DNA of 47,147 nucleotides, taken from the NCBI GenBank assembly GCA_026394815.1, contig JAPLZX010000006.1, positions 1 through 47,147 of the forward strand, read 5' to 3'. Positions 2,648-45,893 of the stretch are shown piece by piece; the stretch's first letter is position 1, and each line of letters begins with the position of its first letter. The notes beneath the pieces are model-generated. The model ran no database searches, was not told where the DNA came from, and saw only the letters and a program-made list of their open reading frames with translations. The DNA comes from Candidatus Zambryskiibacteriota bacterium (lineage in GTDB: Bacteria; Patescibacteriota; Minisyncoccia; Phycocordibacterales; DATDWN01). The position numbers were made by a program, and so were the translations under genes.

Positions 2648-3691
2648 ATGAAAAAAGCTTTAATCACAGGAATAACTGGTCAAGATGGATCATATTTGGC
2701 AGAACTTCTCTTGGAAAAGGGGTATGAGGTGCATGGTATTATTCGTCGTTCAAGTTCTTTTAACACTCATCGAATTGACCATATATATAGTGACCCGCAC
2801 AAAAAGAAACATATGCTTTACCTTCATTATGGCGATTTATCTGATGCGAGTAATTTAAATAGAATACTTGAAAAAGTAAAACCAGATGAAATATACCATC
2901 TGGCTGCCCAAAGTCATGTACGAGTTAGCTTTGACCTCCCAGAGTACACTGGAGATACTACCGGTTTGGGCGCCTTACGCATTCTTGATGCCATACGAGC
3001 ATCTGGAATAAAAACAAAATTTTATCAAGCTTCTTCGAGTGAAATGTTTGGTGAAGCAAAAGAAATACCCCTAAAAGAGACTAGTCCTTTCCATCCTCGC
3101 TCCCCCTATGGAGTTGCCAAAGTCTATGCATACTGGATTACAAGAAATTATAGAGAAAGTTACGGACTGTTTGCAGTAAACGGAATACTTTTTAATCATG
3201 AATCCCCTCGTCGTGGTGAGACCTTTGTCACAAGAAAAATTACAAGAGGATTATCTCGAATAAAACTTGGCCTTGAGAATAAATTGTATTTAGGAAATCT
3301 TGATGCAAAGAGAGATTGGGGTTATGCAAAAGATTACGTAGAGGGTATGTGGCGCATGCTCCAACAAAAAACACCTGATGATTATATTCTAGCTACAAAT
3401 GAAGCTCATACTGTCAAAGAGTTTGTAGAAGAAGTTGGAAAAATATTAGGTATGGATATAAAATGGAAAGGTAAAGGTATAAATGAAAAAGGAATAGACA
3501 AAAAAACAGGAAAAATTATCATTGAGGTCGATCCATTATATTTCCGTCCAGCCGAAGTGAATGTGCTTCTGGGTGACTACAGTAAAGCCAAGAAAAAATT
3601 GGGATGGAAACCAGAGGTCAAATTTAAAGAACTAATCAAAATAATGACTGAGCATGATTTCAAAAAAGAAAAAGATGAAAATAGAATCTAA
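2648..3691 (+). CDS. gmd: GDP-mannose 4,6-dehydratase
   Basis: N-terminus [50 protein letters not shown] (YxxxK) and [17 protein letters not shown] are canonical Gmd motifs. Length 347 aa. Confidence 0.95.
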
Positions 3692-4145
3692 ACATATTCC
3701 AGATGAATTATTTAAAGAAATAGTAAGCAACATGCCTATTTGTACAGTAGATATTGTTTTTTTTAATGAAAAAAAAGACAGGATATTTCTATGTAAAAGA
3801 GCAAATGAGCCTTTAAAAGGAGTATTTATGACAAACGGAGGTAGACTTTTTAAAAACGAGGAGTTGGAAGATTGCGCGATTCGACAAGTTAAAACAGAGC
3901 TTGGTATTTCTATAAACAAGAATCAATTGGTTTTTGGAGGGATTACAAACATGATAACAAACGCTTCTAAATTCGATGAGACAAATTATCATGCTATGGA
4001 TATTTTTTTTGGGTATATAATAAATGAGTCCACTCCAATAAAACTTGATAATCAGCACAGCGAGTCTAAATGGTTTTCTATATACGATGAGTCTCTACAC
4101 CTGTATGCAAAAAGAAGTATTAATATTTTAATACCAAAATTATGA
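3675..4145 (+). CDS. gmm: NUDIX hydrolase, GDP-mannose mannosyl hydrolase-like
   Basis: The pattern [13 protein letters not shown]...[39 protein letters not shown] matches the Gmm/WcaH layout, and the gene lies between gmd and fcl. Start chosen at the internal ATG 3675; the ORF is open from 3654. Confidence 0.75.
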
Positions 4146-36942: not shown

Positions 36943-38196
36943 CTACTTGGGGCTTATTTTCTTTTTTAAATATTTAAAAAAGAATGGAATAAAATTTAAT
37001 CCCATTATAGAAATCTTGTGTATAAGTCGACGAAGTTTTGAAGTCTTCATTCTCTCATAAGAGTTAACCTTGGAGAGAATATCTTTCTTTTTGTCTGGGG
37101 AGATAATTATTGCGGAGCAAAATATTTCACTTAAAGCCTTGGAATTTACAGACCAATCCAAGTTTTTTTCAGCATAATCGCGTGCTTTTCTTTTCCATGA
37201 AGTCAAATCTTTTTGCTTCAAGAAAAAATCTAGTGACTCAACAAGACTATTTTCATCGACAATACACTCTGGCCAAAAATAATCATCATGACGTCTCTGG
37301 TATTTCTTTATTTTCACTAATCTACCATGGTCATTTGAAACAAACTCATTCATTGGTCCATTATCTGGCACAATCGTTGGTAAACCACAAGCTAACGCTT
37401 CAGCTATAGTTAAACCTATACCCTCCAATCGTGTTGGATACACATATACATCCCCAAGATAATATAGTCCCGGAGCCGACACGGTTTTAGTTATAGTGAT
37501 TAAGCTACCATTTTTTTCCAGTTCCTGGAGTAGAGAGGCAAGTTTAGGAAACACAACTATCAAATCAACTTGAGTATGTATGATTAATTTCACTTTATTT
37601 GTCTTTAGTTTTCCAAATGCACTAATCAAAAGATCTGTGCCCTTACGAAAAGGATTCATTCCTGCCGAATGGAAAAAGTTCACAAATTCAGGATCTACCA
37701 CTTCATAAGTTTGTGGTTTAAACAAGGAGATATCTGTCCCCCACGGTACATAATAAGCTTGGTCGTGCCAGGAAAATGCCTCATAATGGCGCTTTGTATT
37801 ACAAATAAGAAAATCATACAATGCAAAAAATGGTCTGGTTTCCTTGGTATAGTAATCAACATAGGCCCCTGTTTTAATTCCAGCGGTACCACAGAAAATA
37901 ATAGGTTCCCACCAATGCTCCTCGTTAAAAAAAACAACTTCTATTTTATTATCTGCAACCCATTTTTTGAAATGATTTAAGTTCTTTTCTCTCGTTTCAC
38001 CACTAAAATCTTTCCCCCATTTTTTATCTCCCCAAGTAACATTGTATTTATTCCAATTTTCATCATCCTCTGCAAATTTTTCCCCACCACGTGCATATAT
38101 GTATATTTCATTATCTTTACTAAGACTGTCTATATACTGCTTTGATACATAGGCAGCCCCCCTCTCAAACCATGTTGTTACTATTCCAATTTTCAT
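36943..38196 (-). CDS. GT4-like (GT-B) glycosyltransferase
   Basis: YVYPTRLEGIGLTIAEALACGLPTIVPDNGPMNEFV is a Glycos_transf_1 core. Length 417 aa. Confidence 0.75.
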   Translation of the reverse strand: MKIGIVTTWFERGAAYVSKQYIDSLSKDNEIYIYARGGEKFAEDDENWNKYNVTWGDKKWGKDFSGETREKNLNHFKKWVADNKIEVVFFNEEHWWEPIIFCGTAGIKTGAYVDYYTKETRPFFALYDFLICNTKRHYEAFSWHDQAYYVPWGTDISLFKPQTYEVVDPEFVNFFHSAGMNPFRKGTDLLISAFGKLKTNKVKLIIHTQVDLIVVFPKLASLLQELEKNGSLITITKTVSAPGLYYLGDVYVYPTRLEGIGLTIAEALACGLPTIVPDNGPMNEFVSNDHGRLVKIKKYQRRHDDYFWPECIVDENSLVESLDFFLKQKDLTSWKRKARDYAEKNLDWSVNSKALSEIFCSAIIISPDKKKDILSKVNSYERMKTSKLRRLIHKISIMGLNFIPFFFKYLKKKISPK

Positions 38197-39216: not shown

Positions 39217-40296
39217 TTAATTCATTAAACTAATTATTTTCTGAATCAAATGGTCTAAACTAAAATCTTTTCTAACCCTAGAATCTAATGTGGTTAGTAT
39301 GAATTTATTATTAGCCATATTTATGAAATCGTATATTTTTTTGGTGAGATCTAATGAATCATTATATCTATATAGAAAAAGATTAGTATACTCTCCGAAC
39401 AATTCAGAAAATATAATGTTTGATATGAATGTAGGTATTCCCAGCAATATAGATTCCAGAACAGCCTTATCCATACCCCCTGATGGGCTCATATTAACTG
39501 TGATGTGACAATTTGAAAGAAGTGTGGGGAAATCTTTGTGTAAGACATTACCAGCGAAAAAAACATTATTTTTAAGATCCTTTTCCTTTATAATTTTCTC
39601 AAGTTCCATCTTATAATTTTTATCACTTTCGGTTACACAATCTCCATATAAAATAATTTGTATATTAAGATTTTTCTTTTTTAATTGGTATCCTGTATCA
39701 ATTAAAGTTTCCAAGTTCTTTATTGGTGTAATTCTTCCTATATATGCAATTCTTAACACTCCCTCTATATATAAATGAGATGTGTTTGGTAATGCATTTA
39801 TGTCTATGCCATGACCAAGATATACAACCTTTTTTGTTTTTATTTTAAAACTCTCTTTTGCTGAACTAAAGATCTTGCTTGTAAATAAAGTGGCTACTCT
39901 TAATTTAAAATCAACACTTCGATGGACATACCATAAATATATTGGGATACCTTTCATTTTAAAATAAACACCACATAAAACAATGTAGATTGGATTCATG
40001 TGAACAAATACTTTATCATATGAACCATTAAGTTTGTGTAAGTACTTGTAGAGATTTTTTAAATAAGAAAAGTATGAAAGACCTAATTCTTTGCCCAAAG
40101 AAAAAACTTCTACCCCAGTAGTAGAGCGTAGCTCACTACGGGGCTTCGCATTACTTTTAAAATCATGTTCACCTTCCTCCAAACAGATTACTTTTACAGA
40201 TTCACAATGCTTTGCGAATTCTTTTATCCAAGTATGAAAAAAACCAAGTACCGAGTCATTTTTATCTACTTTTTGTGTAAATATAAGTAGTCTCAT
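39217..40296 (-). CDS. GT4 glycosyltransferase carrying a GC-rich palindromic in-frame segment
   Basis: MRLLIFTQKVDKNDSVLGFFHTWI..., C-terminal GGMDKAVLESILLGIPT. Length 359 aa. Confidence 0.75.
   Translation of the reverse strand: MRLLIFTQKVDKNDSVLGFFHTWIKEFAKHCESVKVICLEEGEHDFKSNAKPRSELRSTTGVEVFSLGKELGLSYFSYLKNLYKYLHKLNGSYDKVFVHMNPIYIVLCGVYFKMKGIPIYLWYVHRSVDFKLRVATLFTSKIFSSAKESFKIKTKKVVYLGHGIDINALPNTSHLYIEGVLRIAYIGRITPIKNLETLIDTGYQLKKKNLNIQIILYGDCVTESDKNYKMELEKIIKEKDLKNNVFFAGNVLHKDFPTLLSNCHITVNMSPSGGMDKAVLESILLGIPTFISNIIFSELFGEYTNLFLYRYNDSLDLTKKIYDFINMANNKFILTTLDSRVRKDFSLDHLIQKIISLMN
40113..40148. repeat. GC-rich nested palindrome inside the GT4 CDS (possible in-frame insertion)
   Basis: CCCC-a-GTAG-ta-GAGC-gta-GCTC-a-CTAC-GGGG (40113-40143): 12 bp of pairing in 31 nt. 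On the minus strand it encodes PRSELRSTTG. Confidence 0.4.
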
Positions 40297-40694
40297 AAAA
40301 TTTGCTGATTAAAAATGTATTTGTTTGATATTGGAAAAGTACACAACGCCGTACATATTCCAGCAACAATTTGCCCTAGGAGAGGAAGAAAACCAAAATA
40401 ATGAACACAAATATATAAAACTAAAGTATTTACGCACAAACCAAACAGAGAACTAAAAAGATACAATAAACCTTGAATATGAATATTGTCTGTAGAATGA
40501 TCGCGAAACGTCCAGAATTTTTGCAGAATCAGACTAACTAAAAAAGCAACAACAAAAGCAATAATTGACGAGGTAATATAATGAATATGAAAAACATAAA
40601 GAAAGAGAGAAAAAGTCAATAAATTTATAAGAGCACTTGTGCCTCCGGAAATAATATATCTGATAATCAAATGCCGAGTAAAATACTTTATCAT
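40293..40694 (-). CDS. GtrA-family membrane protein (putative lipid-linked sugar flippase)
   Basis: 133 aa, 4 TM helices. YIISGGTSALINLLTFSLFLYV and QKFWTFR are typical GtrA motifs. Confidence 0.8.
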   Translation of the reverse strand: MIKYFTRHLIIRYIISGGTSALINLLTFSLFLYVFHIHYITSSIIAFVVAFLVSLILQKFWTFRDHSTDNIHIQGLLYLFSSLFGLCVNTLVLYICVHYFGFLPLLGQIVAGICTALCTFPISNKYIFNQQIL

Positions 40695-40799
40695 CCCGTT
40701 AGAAATAGGAAATCACACATACTTCATTGTGATTTCTAATCAGATTAAGTTGTAATAATTCGACTTTCATATTTTTGATTTCCGTTTATTTCTAACGGG
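40695..40799. mobile_element. MITE-like 105-bp element with 13-bp perfect terminal inverted repeats and a 5-bp flanking direct repeat
   Basis: CCCGTTAGAAATA (40695-40707) is the exact reverse complement of TATTTCTAACGGG (40787-40799). ATCAT flanks both ends (40690-40694 and 40800-40804). An internal 9-bp hairpin pairs 40709-40717 with 40728-40736. Confidence 0.55.
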
Positions 40800-40800
40800 A

Positions 40801-41949
40801 TCATGCTTTTTTTTCAATCAAATTTTCTAATAAAGCTATGTATTTAGCCGTATATTCTTCTTTTGGAATCATTATATTTTTAATACTATCCTGCATCTCT
40901 CGTTTAAACAACTCTCTTTTAATATTGTTATGGATAAGCTCGGAAATGGCCTTGAAAATACATTCCACATCACCAACTGGGCAGATAAAAGAATTTTTAT
41001 CATTTATAAAAAGAGATGTATTAGCAATACCAACTTGTGTGGTAACAATGGGACACTCACTCGCACCAGCCTCAATTAGAGACATACCATAACCTTCATA
41101 TTCTGATGTCAGTAAAAAAAGATTTGCTGTCTTATAATAAGAAAATAAATCTTTCTGCCAACCAACAAAAACAACATTATTGCTTAATCCAAATTTTTTT
41201 GTTAAATTTTCTAAACTTTTTCTCTCATCTCCATCACCTAAAATAATAAGTCCTGTCTGCGGAAACTCAACTATCACTTTTTTTAAAACATGCAAAGCTA
41301 TATCAATCCTCTTTTCTTTTGTTAGTCGTGACGCCATTAAAATACTAAATTTAAATTGTGAAAAAGTTTTTGTTTTATCCGCCACAACTGAGGAATCAAG
41401 TATTTTTTCAATATCAACAAATACAGGTAATGTTTCTGGAATTATTTTTAGATTCGGAAAGTGTTTATTTATAGAATCTTTGATTACTTCGCTAACTACT
41501 CGTAAACCCTGTGCACGAGGTATTAGAAATTTTGCAATTCTTACACGAACCATATTTAGAAATGAATTTTTAAAATATGGGCTAAGAAAATCAGTATGAA
41601 TTTGAAGTTGCAGTGGAAAATTAAATTTTCTTCTTAAAAAATACCCAACCATTCCCGTTTCAAATGGATCCTGCGTAGAAATGACGGAACTACCTGTAAC
41701 GAGTTTATTTTCTAAAATAATTTTTTTACCAAGTTTTATCGCATCAAAAATATATCCTAAACGGGTGGTAGAATTGGTTGGGTAAAAATAGAGATTATCA
41801 ATAGATTTTGGCTCTAATCCTAGCTTTTTTAAGGAAAAAACAATTATGTGTAATTCCTCCATTTTGGATGCATACTCAACATTTCTCGCTAAAACAGCGC
41901 TTCCGTCCTCAAATAATCTTCTATCTGTACCAATGGAAATAATTTTCAT
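40801..41949 (-). CDS. GT4 glycosyltransferase
   Basis: FLLTSEYEGYGMSLIEAGASECPIVTTQVG is the Glycos_transf_1 EX7E region. Length 382 aa. Confidence 0.8.
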   Translation of the reverse strand: MKIISIGTDRRLFEDGSAVLARNVEYASKMEELHIIVFSLKKLGLEPKSIDNLYFYPTNSTTRLGYIFDAIKLGKKIILENKLVTGSSVISTQDPFETGMVGYFLRRKFNFPLQLQIHTDFLSPYFKNSFLNMVRVRIAKFLIPRAQGLRVVSEVIKDSINKHFPNLKIIPETLPVFVDIEKILDSSVVADKTKTFSQFKFSILMASRLTKEKRIDIALHVLKKVIVEFPQTGLIILGDGDERKSLENLTKKFGLSNNVVFVGWQKDLFSYYKTANLFLLTSEYEGYGMSLIEAGASECPIVTTQVGIANTSLFINDKNSFICPVGDVECIFKAISELIHNNIKRELFKREMQDSIKNIMIPKEEYTAKYIALLENLIEKKA

Positions 41950-45833: not shown

Positions 45834-45859
45834 TATACAACAAAGTGATTAATTGTAAA
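45832..45859 (-). promoter_or_regulatory. Putative promoter for the ATPase/GT4 operon
   Basis: Minus strand TTTACA (45859-45854), 16-nt spacer, TATAAT (45837-45832, overlapping the first ATG), then 10 nt to the second in-frame ATG (45821). Confidence 0.4.
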
Positions 45860-45893
45860 AATAAACCCATTTTAAGAAAATGAGTTTATTTTT
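45857..45893 (-). terminator. Intrinsic terminator after the pilin gene (bidirectional shape)
   Basis: aaaaataaacccatttt (45857-45873), loop aag, aaaatgagtttattttt (45877-45893): a 15-bp stem with one G-U/mismatch position and a U-run on both strands. Confidence 0.6.

Follow-up and report, generated by a model that had tools for sequence, protein, structure and literature searches.

The window analysed here is a stretch of 47,147 nucleotides from a Candidatus Zambryskiibacteriota bacterium (contig JAPLZX010000006.1). Its minus strand carries a glycosyltransferase operon in which a GT4 glycosyltransferase gene (40801-41949) lies upstream of gtrA (40293-40694), whose product has a GtrA/DPMS transmembrane domain. 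Neighbouring genes of the operon overlap through ATGA at 38193, 40293 and 41946. Between the GT4 gene and gtrA there is a 105-bp spacer (40695-40799), which is opened by CCCGTTAGAAATA and closed by TATTTCTAACGGG, a perfect 13-bp inverted repeat, and ATCAT is present on both of its sides (40690-40694 and 40800-40804). The first-pass annotation of this DNA had noted the spacer, its repeats with their bulged extension, the flanking ATCAT and the ATGA junctions, and all of these were confirmed in the sequence. In our assessment, the interval 40694-40800 on the minus strand is very probably a non-autonomous member, of the miniature inverted-repeat transposable element (MITE) type, of a large family of tiny elements found mainly in Patescibacteria, which we propose to be mobilized by a small GIY-YIG nuclease and to be tied to the translation of the host genes.

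When the ends were placed in the register of the family, the terminal T and A were located just outside 40695-40799, giving a non-coding, hairpin-forming mobile element of 107 bp. With this adjoining T/A pair the inverted repeat is perfect over 14 bp, and with the flanks it extends to 18 nt at 94%. On the coding strand the upstream terminal repeat is TCCCGTTAGAAATA (40787-40800) and the downstream one is TATTTCTAACGGGA (40694-40707), and the whole region reads ...GAAAAAAAAGC ATGA TCCCGTTAGAAATA AAC GGAAATCA ...(interior)... TGATTTCC TATTTCTAACGGGA TGATAAAG.... The stop codon of the GT4 gene is kept by the upstream copy of a duplicated TGA (40801-40803); the downstream copy is at 40691-40693. 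The start codon of gtrA (40692-40694) is composed of the terminal A of the element (40694) and the TG of the downstream copy. The A at 40804, combined with the upstream TGA, preserves the original ATG at 40802-40804, and the downstream repeat holds a TAA (40699-40701) 4 nt before the gtrA ATG. The junctions are ATGA^TCCCG...CGGGA^TGAT (^, junction), so that the duplication is TGA, 3 bp. The same register was found in L008 and L102, which belong to the same subfamily (L-numbers denote the loci used for comparison). A 5-bp duplication had been proposed earlier for this copy. The ATGAT string itself is real, being made up of a flanking base, TGA and the element-terminal base; however, the family duplicates 4 bp (3 bp here) and its ends are T...A rather than CCCG...CGGG.

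No further copy of the 13-mer was found in the 47-kb window contig with up to 2 mismatches allowed. The significance of the repeat therefore rests on the family evidence, and the extra copies that had been anticipated were found at no fewer than 119 short loci with the same ends in GTDB representative genomes. Neither other notable inverted repeats nor tRNA genes were found within the window. All contigs from the same population carry the element. One of them, L007, opens inside the element (1-40), 40 nt before gtrA, and L001, L003 and L005 open at one shared point, 79 nt upstream of a pilin-like gene; these contig starts may reflect strain variation or breaks of the assembly at repeats. Two AT-rich hairpins with perfect stems and loops of 3-5 nt, at 35-73 and 45857-45893 of the window, stand at gene ends, are unrelated to the element and look like terminators.

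The junction in related operons and the fold of the spacer

Contigs of relatives were located through homologues of the GT4 protein, which are 67-75% identical in protein or DNA sequence. The GT4/gtrA junction was empty in four related operons, L145, L269, L270 and L271 (for example, AAGTGATAAAATATTTTAC). In L145 the junction is AAAGTGATAAAATATTTTAC / CAATCAAAGTGATAAAATATTTTACC, and the GTG start of gtrA overlaps the TGA of the GT4 gene; the empty junctions of L269 and L270 are TCATAG^ATGATAAAGTATTTTACTCG and AAAATGAAAATT, respectively. The empty site that had been predicted from the window, GCATGATAAAG, was essentially seen in L269, L145 and L270. Moreover, TGA is single in the empty L145 and L269 and double in the window and in L143. 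Since the junction is empty in relatives, the spacer of the window is a derived insertion.

In L143 and L144, a full-length element that encodes a GIY-YIG nuclease (93 and 86 residues, respectively) is located exactly between the GT4 gene and gtrA. The element with the 93-residue nuclease is 276 bp long and has the same ends as the window copy. The junctions of both loci are ATGA^TCCCGTTAGAG... and ...CTAACGGGA^TGATAAAATATTTTAC, or in longer form AACGGATGA^TCCCGTTAGAGACA... and ...CTGTCTCTAACGGGA^TGATAAAATATTTTAC, in a 3-bp register identical to that of the window, and the downstream junction of L143, CGGGA^TGATAAA, is as in the window. Judged from the identities of the flanking genes, L143 (full) and L145 (empty) are nearer to each other than to the window, which requires at least two events at the GT4/gtrA site.

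Two side observations were made on this gene pair. In L145 the gtrA orthologue (3631-4023), which starts at a GTG within a GTGA overlap and has an intact 130-codon open reading frame (ORF), was missed by the gene caller of the source. In some relatives (proteins P0168, 549 residues, and P0221, 520 residues) the GT4 and GtrA domains are in one ORF; the stop/start junction that is targeted here is thus fused in other lineages.

The minus-strand RNA of the element was predicted to fold at -36.1 kcal/mol, compared with an average of -17.2 for shuffled sequences (z = -5.64; 0 of 200 shuffles as good). After a 3-nt bulge (AAC), a sub-terminal stem is formed on the coding strand by the 5' arm GGAAATCA (40776-40783) and the 3' arm TGATTTCC (40708-40715); as read on the forward strand, GGAAATCA (40708-40715) pairs with TGATTTCC (40776-40783) past the bulge. 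In the subfamily alignment, two pairs of this stem carry compensatory changes (UA<->CG and CG<->UA). Alternative folds had also been suggested: a second box, TGTGATTTC (40728-40736), can indeed pair locally with GAAATCACA, but no conservation of this box was found in the closest members of the subfamily alignment. A scan of the whole window against Rfam gave 0 matches at the gathering score, and a permissive Rfam scan of the element gave only plant microRNA matches at chance level (E = 0.1-0.3).

A strong and significant fold before gtrA, with the start codon sequestered, would also be expected if the spacer were an ancestral, non-mobile regulatory hairpin of the glycosyltransferase operon, such as an attenuator or another structured intercistronic RNA. 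We find this scarcely credible. Four related operons have no element, Rfam gave no match, and the same ends stand before genes of unrelated kinds in several phyla, in more than 100 genomes. In addition, neither the interior nor the alternative-pairing box is conserved. The empty sites contradict an ancestral hairpin, save as a secondary, exapted role. An ancestral hairpin had been expected to appear as a conserved spacer in orthologous operons and to have no other copies; four empty junctions and many copies were found instead.

Short copies and the rules of their insertion

Short copies were collected by scanning one genome per GTDB species for the exact pattern CCGTTAGAAATA-N66-96-TATTTCTAACGG. 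The family ends are inverted repeats of 14-15 bp, TCCCGTTAGA(A/G)ATA ... TAT(T/C)TCTAACGGGA, and the short form is a long hairpin of about 95-125 bp. Among the matches listed, the hosts are mostly Patescibacteria (Saccharibacteria, Paceibacterota and the Kaiser-, Yanofsky-, Zambryski-, Jorgensen-, Nomura- and Moraniibacteria), and a minority of copies is found in Elusimicrobiota, Stahlbacteria, TA06, Planctomycetota and Desulfobacteraceae. Among the viral contigs of IMG/VR, none was found to carry a copy with such ends. The interiors are very diverse (101 clusters at 70% identity among 121 copies). Several metagenome-assembled genomes (MAGs) carry 2-4 or more short copies each, identical ones at different loci included. 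L016 and L024, two loci of one MAG, hold 113-bp copies that are 100% identical, and L066 and L086 in another MAG are a 97% identical pair. Since identical copies are present at separate loci of one MAG, the short form is mobile and has moved recently.

A start codon (ATG, GTG or TTG) adjoins one end in 92 of the 121 short copies and opens an ORF of at least 60 codons or one running off the locus; in those 92 a single base separates it from the AACGG that closes the scan pattern. Outside the searched 12-mers, the inner base is a C/G pair in 117-118 of 119 short copies, and the outer base pairs in about 118 of 119, being T/A in 95 and C/G in about 23. Beyond the ends there is a 4-bp direct repeat in a single register, exact in 71 of the 119. 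Its sequence is mostly TGAA, with TGGA, TGAG, TGCA and TGCG also found. The canonical junctions are ...A TGAA^TCCCGTTAG...CTAACGGGA^TGAA..., in which the duplicated bases are bases 2-5 of the host ORF, or 2-4 where the duplication is 3 bp, and the last base of the element (A, or G in a subfamily) together with the duplicated TG re-creates an ATG or a GTG. The terminal base and the downstream start change together: a T/A pair goes with ATG, and a C/G pair, as in the C...G-ended subfamily, goes with a rebuilt GTG (L014, L035, L100 and L126). A clean filled/empty pair in the 4-bp register was provided by L030 (ATGAA[element]TGAA) and L114 (ATGAA once). When the insertion is at an ATGA overlap, the upstream copy of the repeat keeps the TGA of the upstream gene, as between the GT4 gene and gtrA. 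Furthermore, the orientation of the element relative to the host gene is 59:1, as judged by a 2-3-nt bulge that is present in the 5' arm only. The landing on a start codon is no accident of the window copy; insertion at start codons is a rule of the family. The view of the window copy as a non-autonomous mobile element placed in a stop/start junction, with both codons regenerated, is borne out by the empty sites in relatives and the family copies.

Two other ways of describing the ends were tried and rejected. In a 2-bp-duplication model, with the ends ATCCCG...CGGGAT, an outer base G (TGAG, TGCG) preserves the direct repeat and breaks the inverted repeat. An attC-like integron site was considered on account of the GTTAGAA motif; however, the order here is GTTAGAA ... 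TTCTAAC, the reverse of 5'-RYYYAAC ... GTTRRRY-3'.

Further arrangements of the ends were observed on the side. L030 (reverse strand, about 2540-2830), compared with L114 (2692-2820), holds short copies in tandem, in which an older copy has variant ends (TCCCGTTAGAGGTC...TACCTCTAACGGGA) and its duplicated ATGAA was entered by a copy with AGAAATA-type ends. The variant-ended older copy indicates that the family is broader than the exact patterns searched. In L274 (1391-1760; Levybacteria), a full-length element has a mutated left end within which a mini copy of about 80 bp is located, and a spurious 33-residue ORF is annotated there by gene callers; L047 (6554-6778) is a composite element of 224 bp. 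In three lineages of the candidate phyla radiation (CPR), a complete tRNA-Leu(CAG) lies exactly between the same 12-mers (L032 359-473, L038 1715-1829 and L046 7815-7929). The arrangement is CCGTTAGAAATA-T-[tRNA]-GCA-TATTTCTAACGG, with conserved outer flanks (GGCTCCCTTGTC / GATGAACC), and could represent either a family member with a tRNA cargo or the same ends in another role.

The full-length form and its GIY-YIG nuclease

Full-length forms were first met when one mismatch was allowed in the ends, as elements of 273-275 bp in L080 (two copies) and L019. The L080 pair is near-identical, and each copy stands before a different gene. The full-length element encodes only one protein, of about 86 residues (86-94), which matched Pfam GIY-YIG (PF01541, E = 1.9e-17). 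In L080 the nuclease shares its reading frame with the retained host ATG (ATG AAT CCC GTT AGA GAT AAC AAA ATG TGT...), and the stop TGA of the nuclease overlaps the rebuilt host ATG (CTA ACG GGA TGA). The N-terminus MNPVRD and the C-terminus KRYLKNRLKRFLSLTG (KRFLSLTG) of the nuclease are translations of the two repeats. At least 3,291 protein clusters (90% identity; typically 94-95 residues) were retrieved by homology to the nuclease and have these same termini. The full-length insertion sites are before many unrelated genes (ruvX, atpA, glycosyltransferases, gtrA and others). In the gene calls, two nucleases have a 4-nt overlap with a downstream ruvX, and a nuclease between two ATP-synthase genes overlaps on both sides.

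A metagenome scan gave at least 120 full-length loci, with 99 elements analysable. Of these, 54 have T...A ends. Within this class a start codon is at the junction in 51, followed by a long downstream ORF in 48; the 4-bp repeat is exact in 32 (27 of them TGAA); and the nuclease ORF ends in ...SLTG with its TGA overlapping the host ATG in 47. Twenty-two of the 54 nuclease ORFs are in frame with the retained ATG. The C...G-ended elements (39 analysable) are mostly away from gene starts. Four of them (L209, L239, L245 and L258) are near the 3' end of ORF6N-domain genes (PF10543, E = 9e-32), for which empty counterparts were found in L213 (1597-1702) and L174 (964-1217). At these sites the nuclease ORF continues without a frame change into the C-terminal part of the host protein (...SLTGQVEEPKVPYI), and the inserted DNA has a 4-bp extension, CAAG, complementary to the host CTTG, with no direct repeat. 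The C...G class in ORF6N genes behaves more like site-specific homing.

In the nuclease alignment 27 columns do not vary, among them the catalytic positions to be expected (Y..Y, YTG, R, H, E and N), and on this pattern the nuclease is likely to be active. Its nearest solved relatives by sequence and fold are UPF0213 BH0048 (1ZG2), the best match, followed by the structure-specific nuclease Slx1, and the fold score of I-TevI is far lower (AlphaFold2 model; pLDDT, the predicted local distance difference test, 82). The protein consists of the catalytic domain only, with no separate DNA-binding domain. It had no match in PHROGs or NCBIfam, and in databases it is named 'GIY-YIG nuclease family protein' or, wrongly, 'excinuclease ABC subunit C'.

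The first-pass annotation had proposed that a partner with matching ends should exist and that it should be a transposase. The partner does exist, but it encodes a GIY-YIG nuclease of 86-94 residues and not a conventional transposase. The ORF between matching ends matched Pfam GIY-YIG only, and no DDE, DEDD, HUH or serine transposase. The fetched loci, about 0.9 Mb in total, showed no transposase flanked by a pair of ends at a distance of 1-3.5 kb; only elements of 224-275 bp and solo or degenerate ends were present. These results bear on whether the window copy is a conventional MITE, derived from a DDE-type insertion sequence, that duplicated the 5 bp ATGAT and happened to be tolerated in an ATGA overlap. 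The window copy taken by itself has the perfect terminal inverted repeats and the 5-bp direct repeat of such a MITE, and a single ATGAT or GTGAT would fit the empty sites. We nevertheless consider such an origin very unlikely, given that no transposase was found between such ends in the fetched loci and the fact that the only longer elements found with these ends encode the GIY-YIG nuclease. In addition, a 5-bp duplication next to CCCG...CGGG fails for the majority form, ATGAAT^CCCG...CGGG^ATGAAx, and placement at start codons in a fixed orientation is a rule of the family.

Since the ends, the target, the orientation and even the site are shared by both forms, we propose that the GIY-YIG nuclease mobilizes both through the conserved ends, perhaps through their hairpin or cruciform. 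The window copy might, on the other hand, be the decayed stump of a full-length element at this very junction, its gene having been lost by internal deletions. L143 and L144 have the full-length element at the same junction and in the same 3-bp register, the 59:1 orientation would follow if full-length elements of one orientation had decayed in situ, and degenerate and nested copies exist (L274 and L047). However, the interior of the window copy showed no significant collinear similarity to the full-length elements by blastn-short, the ends alone, of about 14-25 nt, being common to both. In a gap-tolerant global alignment against the nuclease gene with shuffled controls, the window copy scored z = -1.3, and only L057 was clearly positive. 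The interior instead resembles short copies at unrelated loci in other genomes (L096, L097, L013, L048 and L108), with which it shares a 103-nt core, the layout of a bulge plus a 7-bp stem and the motif ATGAAAGTCGAATTATTACAA. Identical short copies at two loci of one MAG indicate that short forms move as such, and the closeness of L143 and L145 means that at least two events at the site are needed in any case. We therefore regard in-situ decay as improbable. Since its interior has no significant similarity to the nuclease gene, the window copy is termed a non-autonomous member of the family and not a demonstrated deletion derivative.

Spread by homing was weighed as another route, in which the nuclease would cut start-codon targets and repair would copy the element through microhomology with the ATGAA repeats that flank the donor. 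Classical homing nucleases belong to the GIY-YIG enzymes (I-TevI and the T4 Seg proteins), the same site is occupied in orthologous operons with empty alleles in relatives, and the repeat is overwhelmingly TGAA. Moreover, the orientation is fixed despite the symmetric ends, which microhomology on a non-palindromic repeat would explain. Against homing, the protein has no DNA-binding domain, its fold is nearest to the structure-specific Slx1 and not to I-TevI, and repeats other than TGAA occur (TGGA, TGAG, TGCA and TGCG). The conservation of the inverted-repeat ends in non-coding copies also argues that the ends themselves are recognized. We hold homing to be an unlikely route, although one to be taken seriously, and we prefer a mobilization in which the nuclease would act on the ends of the element.

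Translation of the host gene across the element, and known systems

The 3' repeat places its three frames in different relations to the host gene: one is closed by the TAA that precedes the ATG by 4 nt, another, where the ORF begins with ATGA, by a TGA that overlaps the ATG, and the last is in frame with the host ORF. At full-length copies, the gene calls have 4-nt overlaps on both sides. In the 92 short copies at starts, the mean fold was -40 kcal/mol compared with -23 for shuffles, and the start codon had at least 2 nt paired in 89 of the 92 hairpins. Open frames ending beside the host ATG were longer in the sense direction than in a mirror control (median 30 versus 22 codons), and 33 versus 14 span the element (p = 0.014). 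A conserved peptide gene in the short copies was considered and rejected: the stop density is equal on both strands, and the frames of the micro-ORFs differ between subfamilies. In the window, a Shine-Dalgarno-like 4-mer (-20 to -4) was present at only 2 of 40 ORF starts, which suggests that initiation in this Zambryskibacteria MAG is largely independent of Shine-Dalgarno sequences. Initiation then probably depends on an unstructured start region, and the accessibility of the start codon should matter.

The minus strand of the window element holds only two short ORFs, whose translation is hypothetical and which are not conserved across the family. ORF 1 (MIPLEINGNQKYESRIITT*; 40745-40804, 19 codons) runs from the retained ATG, which overlaps the GT4 stop, into the 5' arm of the hairpin. 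ORF 2 (MKVELLQLNLIRNHNEVCVISYF*; 40699-40770, 23 codons) ends at the TAA 4 nt before the gtrA ATG, and subfamily members have equivalent ORFs of 22-23 codons ending at the same TAA. On this arrangement we propose that the retained original ATG, still in the initiation context of the host, would drive translation into the element. The 3' end of the element would set a stop beside the rebuilt start, either as a TGA overlap (full-length) or as TAA-CGGG-ATG (short), and the host gene would be translated by termination-reinitiation while upstream ribosomes melt the hairpin that otherwise buries its start codon. In the window, ribosomes ending the GT4 gene at its TGA would stand at the base of the stem, where the overlapping ATG would open ORF 1 through the 5' arm; the 23-codon ORF 2 would then end at the TAA before gtrA, and expression of gtrA would still depend on translation arriving from GT4. 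The insertion had been thought to uncouple gtrA translation from the upstream gene. This seems unlikely: a stop that is 4 nt before or overlaps the rebuilt ATG, together with an ATG buried in a stem, favours relayed coupling over uncoupling. The expression of gtrA is probably gated by a strong hairpin.

Several observations weigh against the reading preferred here, in which the window element is a non-autonomous member of the family, moved by the nuclease and coupled to host translation. The copy sets, having been obtained with exact-end patterns, are biased toward well-preserved ends. The window, a whole 47-kb contig, holds one copy and no GIY-YIG gene, and contigs L001-L007 from the same population were likewise found to have none. 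Only some 60% of the copies have an exact direct repeat, which is 3 bp in the window. The association with start codons could come in part from purifying selection acting on insertions into a short preferred target (A^TGAA) where genes are densely packed. As for coupling, the stop of ORF 1 is still 52 nt away from the 3' end of the search core, and no obvious signal for initiation precedes ORF 2. The stop density inside the short copies is equal on the two strands (1.76 versus 1.69 per frame), so that the evidence for selected read-through is weak and the support for coupling is modest. The dissimilarity between the interior of the window copy and the full-length elements, described above, also belongs here. 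To our knowledge, strand-transfer catalysis is not known for GIY-YIG nucleases. Finally, in a subfamily formed by L055, L078, L095, L104 and L119 (ATAACCCTAATGGG...), the upstream side has neither an ATG nor a direct repeat, and the TAA of the upstream gene adjoins the element (..TAA^TCCCG); either the duplication is variable in length or the retained ATG was later lost by mutation.

A wider proposal, which we advance tentatively and with somewhat more doubt than belief, is that the family constitutes a new class of prokaryotic transposable element, with inverted repeats and 3-4-bp duplications, that colonizes start codons. Its sole enzyme would be the 86-residue, Slx1/UPF0213-like GIY-YIG nuclease, acting on the hairpin or cruciform of its own ends. 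The element would borrow the initiation signals of the host and return the ribosomes through an overlapping stop and start, and its non-coding derivatives would make host translation strictly dependent on upstream translation, with the start locked in a stem of about -40 kcal/mol. The bacterial transposition repertoire known to us comprises DDE, DEDD, HUH, serine or tyrosine recombinases, to which, if the nuclease does move the elements, a new enzyme class would be added. It would also be a very economical form of parasitism, in which the host initiation site is used, the start is rebuilt by the last base of the element and harm is avoided through translational coupling. The family is abundant in Patescibacteria, whose genomes are reduced and for which a poverty of mobile DNA is usually reported. 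Its short copies carry no annotation and may lead gene callers astray, as seen in spurious ORFs of 33-38 residues and in missed starts (gtrA in L145).

No prior description of such an element was found in the full-text literature on MITEs in Patescibacteria, on GIY-YIG proteins in CPR and on UPF0213/YhbQ/COG2827, subscription-only literature being outside the scope of the search, and the family apparently has not been described so far. A GIY-YIG protein is listed among the genes transferred from Patescibacteria to other bacteria (PMC12455944).

Among the known systems, the ribosome hop of T4 gene 60 and the shunt of cauliflower mosaic virus are comparable only in the way they work. A stable hairpin stands between matched sequences with a stop on the take-off side, and downstream translation depends on ribosomes from upstream; ordinary termination-reinitiation, however, suffices for the architecture of the family, and there is no evidence of bypass. 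The Rickettsia palindromic elements are likewise palindromic selfish elements of about 100-150 bp that are tolerated in or at the edges of genes whose frames survive. Unlike the present family, which rebuilds a start codon, they are inserted within ORFs, keeping the frame, and no autonomous partner is known for them.

For the nuclease itself, the closest comparison is with UPF0213/YhbQ (COG2827) and the Slx1 domain, BH0048 (1ZG2) being the best match in sequence and fold and Slx1 the next. Slx1 is a nuclease for branched, cruciform-like DNA, and both it and UPF0213/YhbQ are regarded as cellular repair proteins, whereas the gene of the family is bounded by inverted repeats, is multi-copy and takes its first and last codons from the repeats. 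The SegA-G proteins of T4 and I-TevI resemble the family in that a GIY-YIG nuclease is the sole product of a selfish gene, inserted between operon genes without destroying them, at a site that is filled or empty between relatives. In contrast to them, the family nuclease is an 86-residue catalytic domain with no DNA-binding domain, and the family has inverted-repeat ends, target duplications, many sites and non-coding derivatives that move.

The likeness to MITEs and insertion sequences, such as the Correia elements of Neisseria and the bacterial MITEs derived from IS630/Tc1, is considerable. The window copy is non-coding and shorter than 500 bp, with terminal inverted repeats and a duplication evident from filled versus empty sites, and the family shares with MITEs the short non-coding form, perfect repeats, a short duplication, several copies in some MAGs, a transcript hairpin and a longer partner with the same ends. 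Unlike in those systems, the partner here encodes an 86-residue GIY-YIG nuclease and no DDE, HUH, serine or tyrosine transposase, and the element stands at start codons in a fixed orientation, with its terminal base forming part of the rebuilt start.

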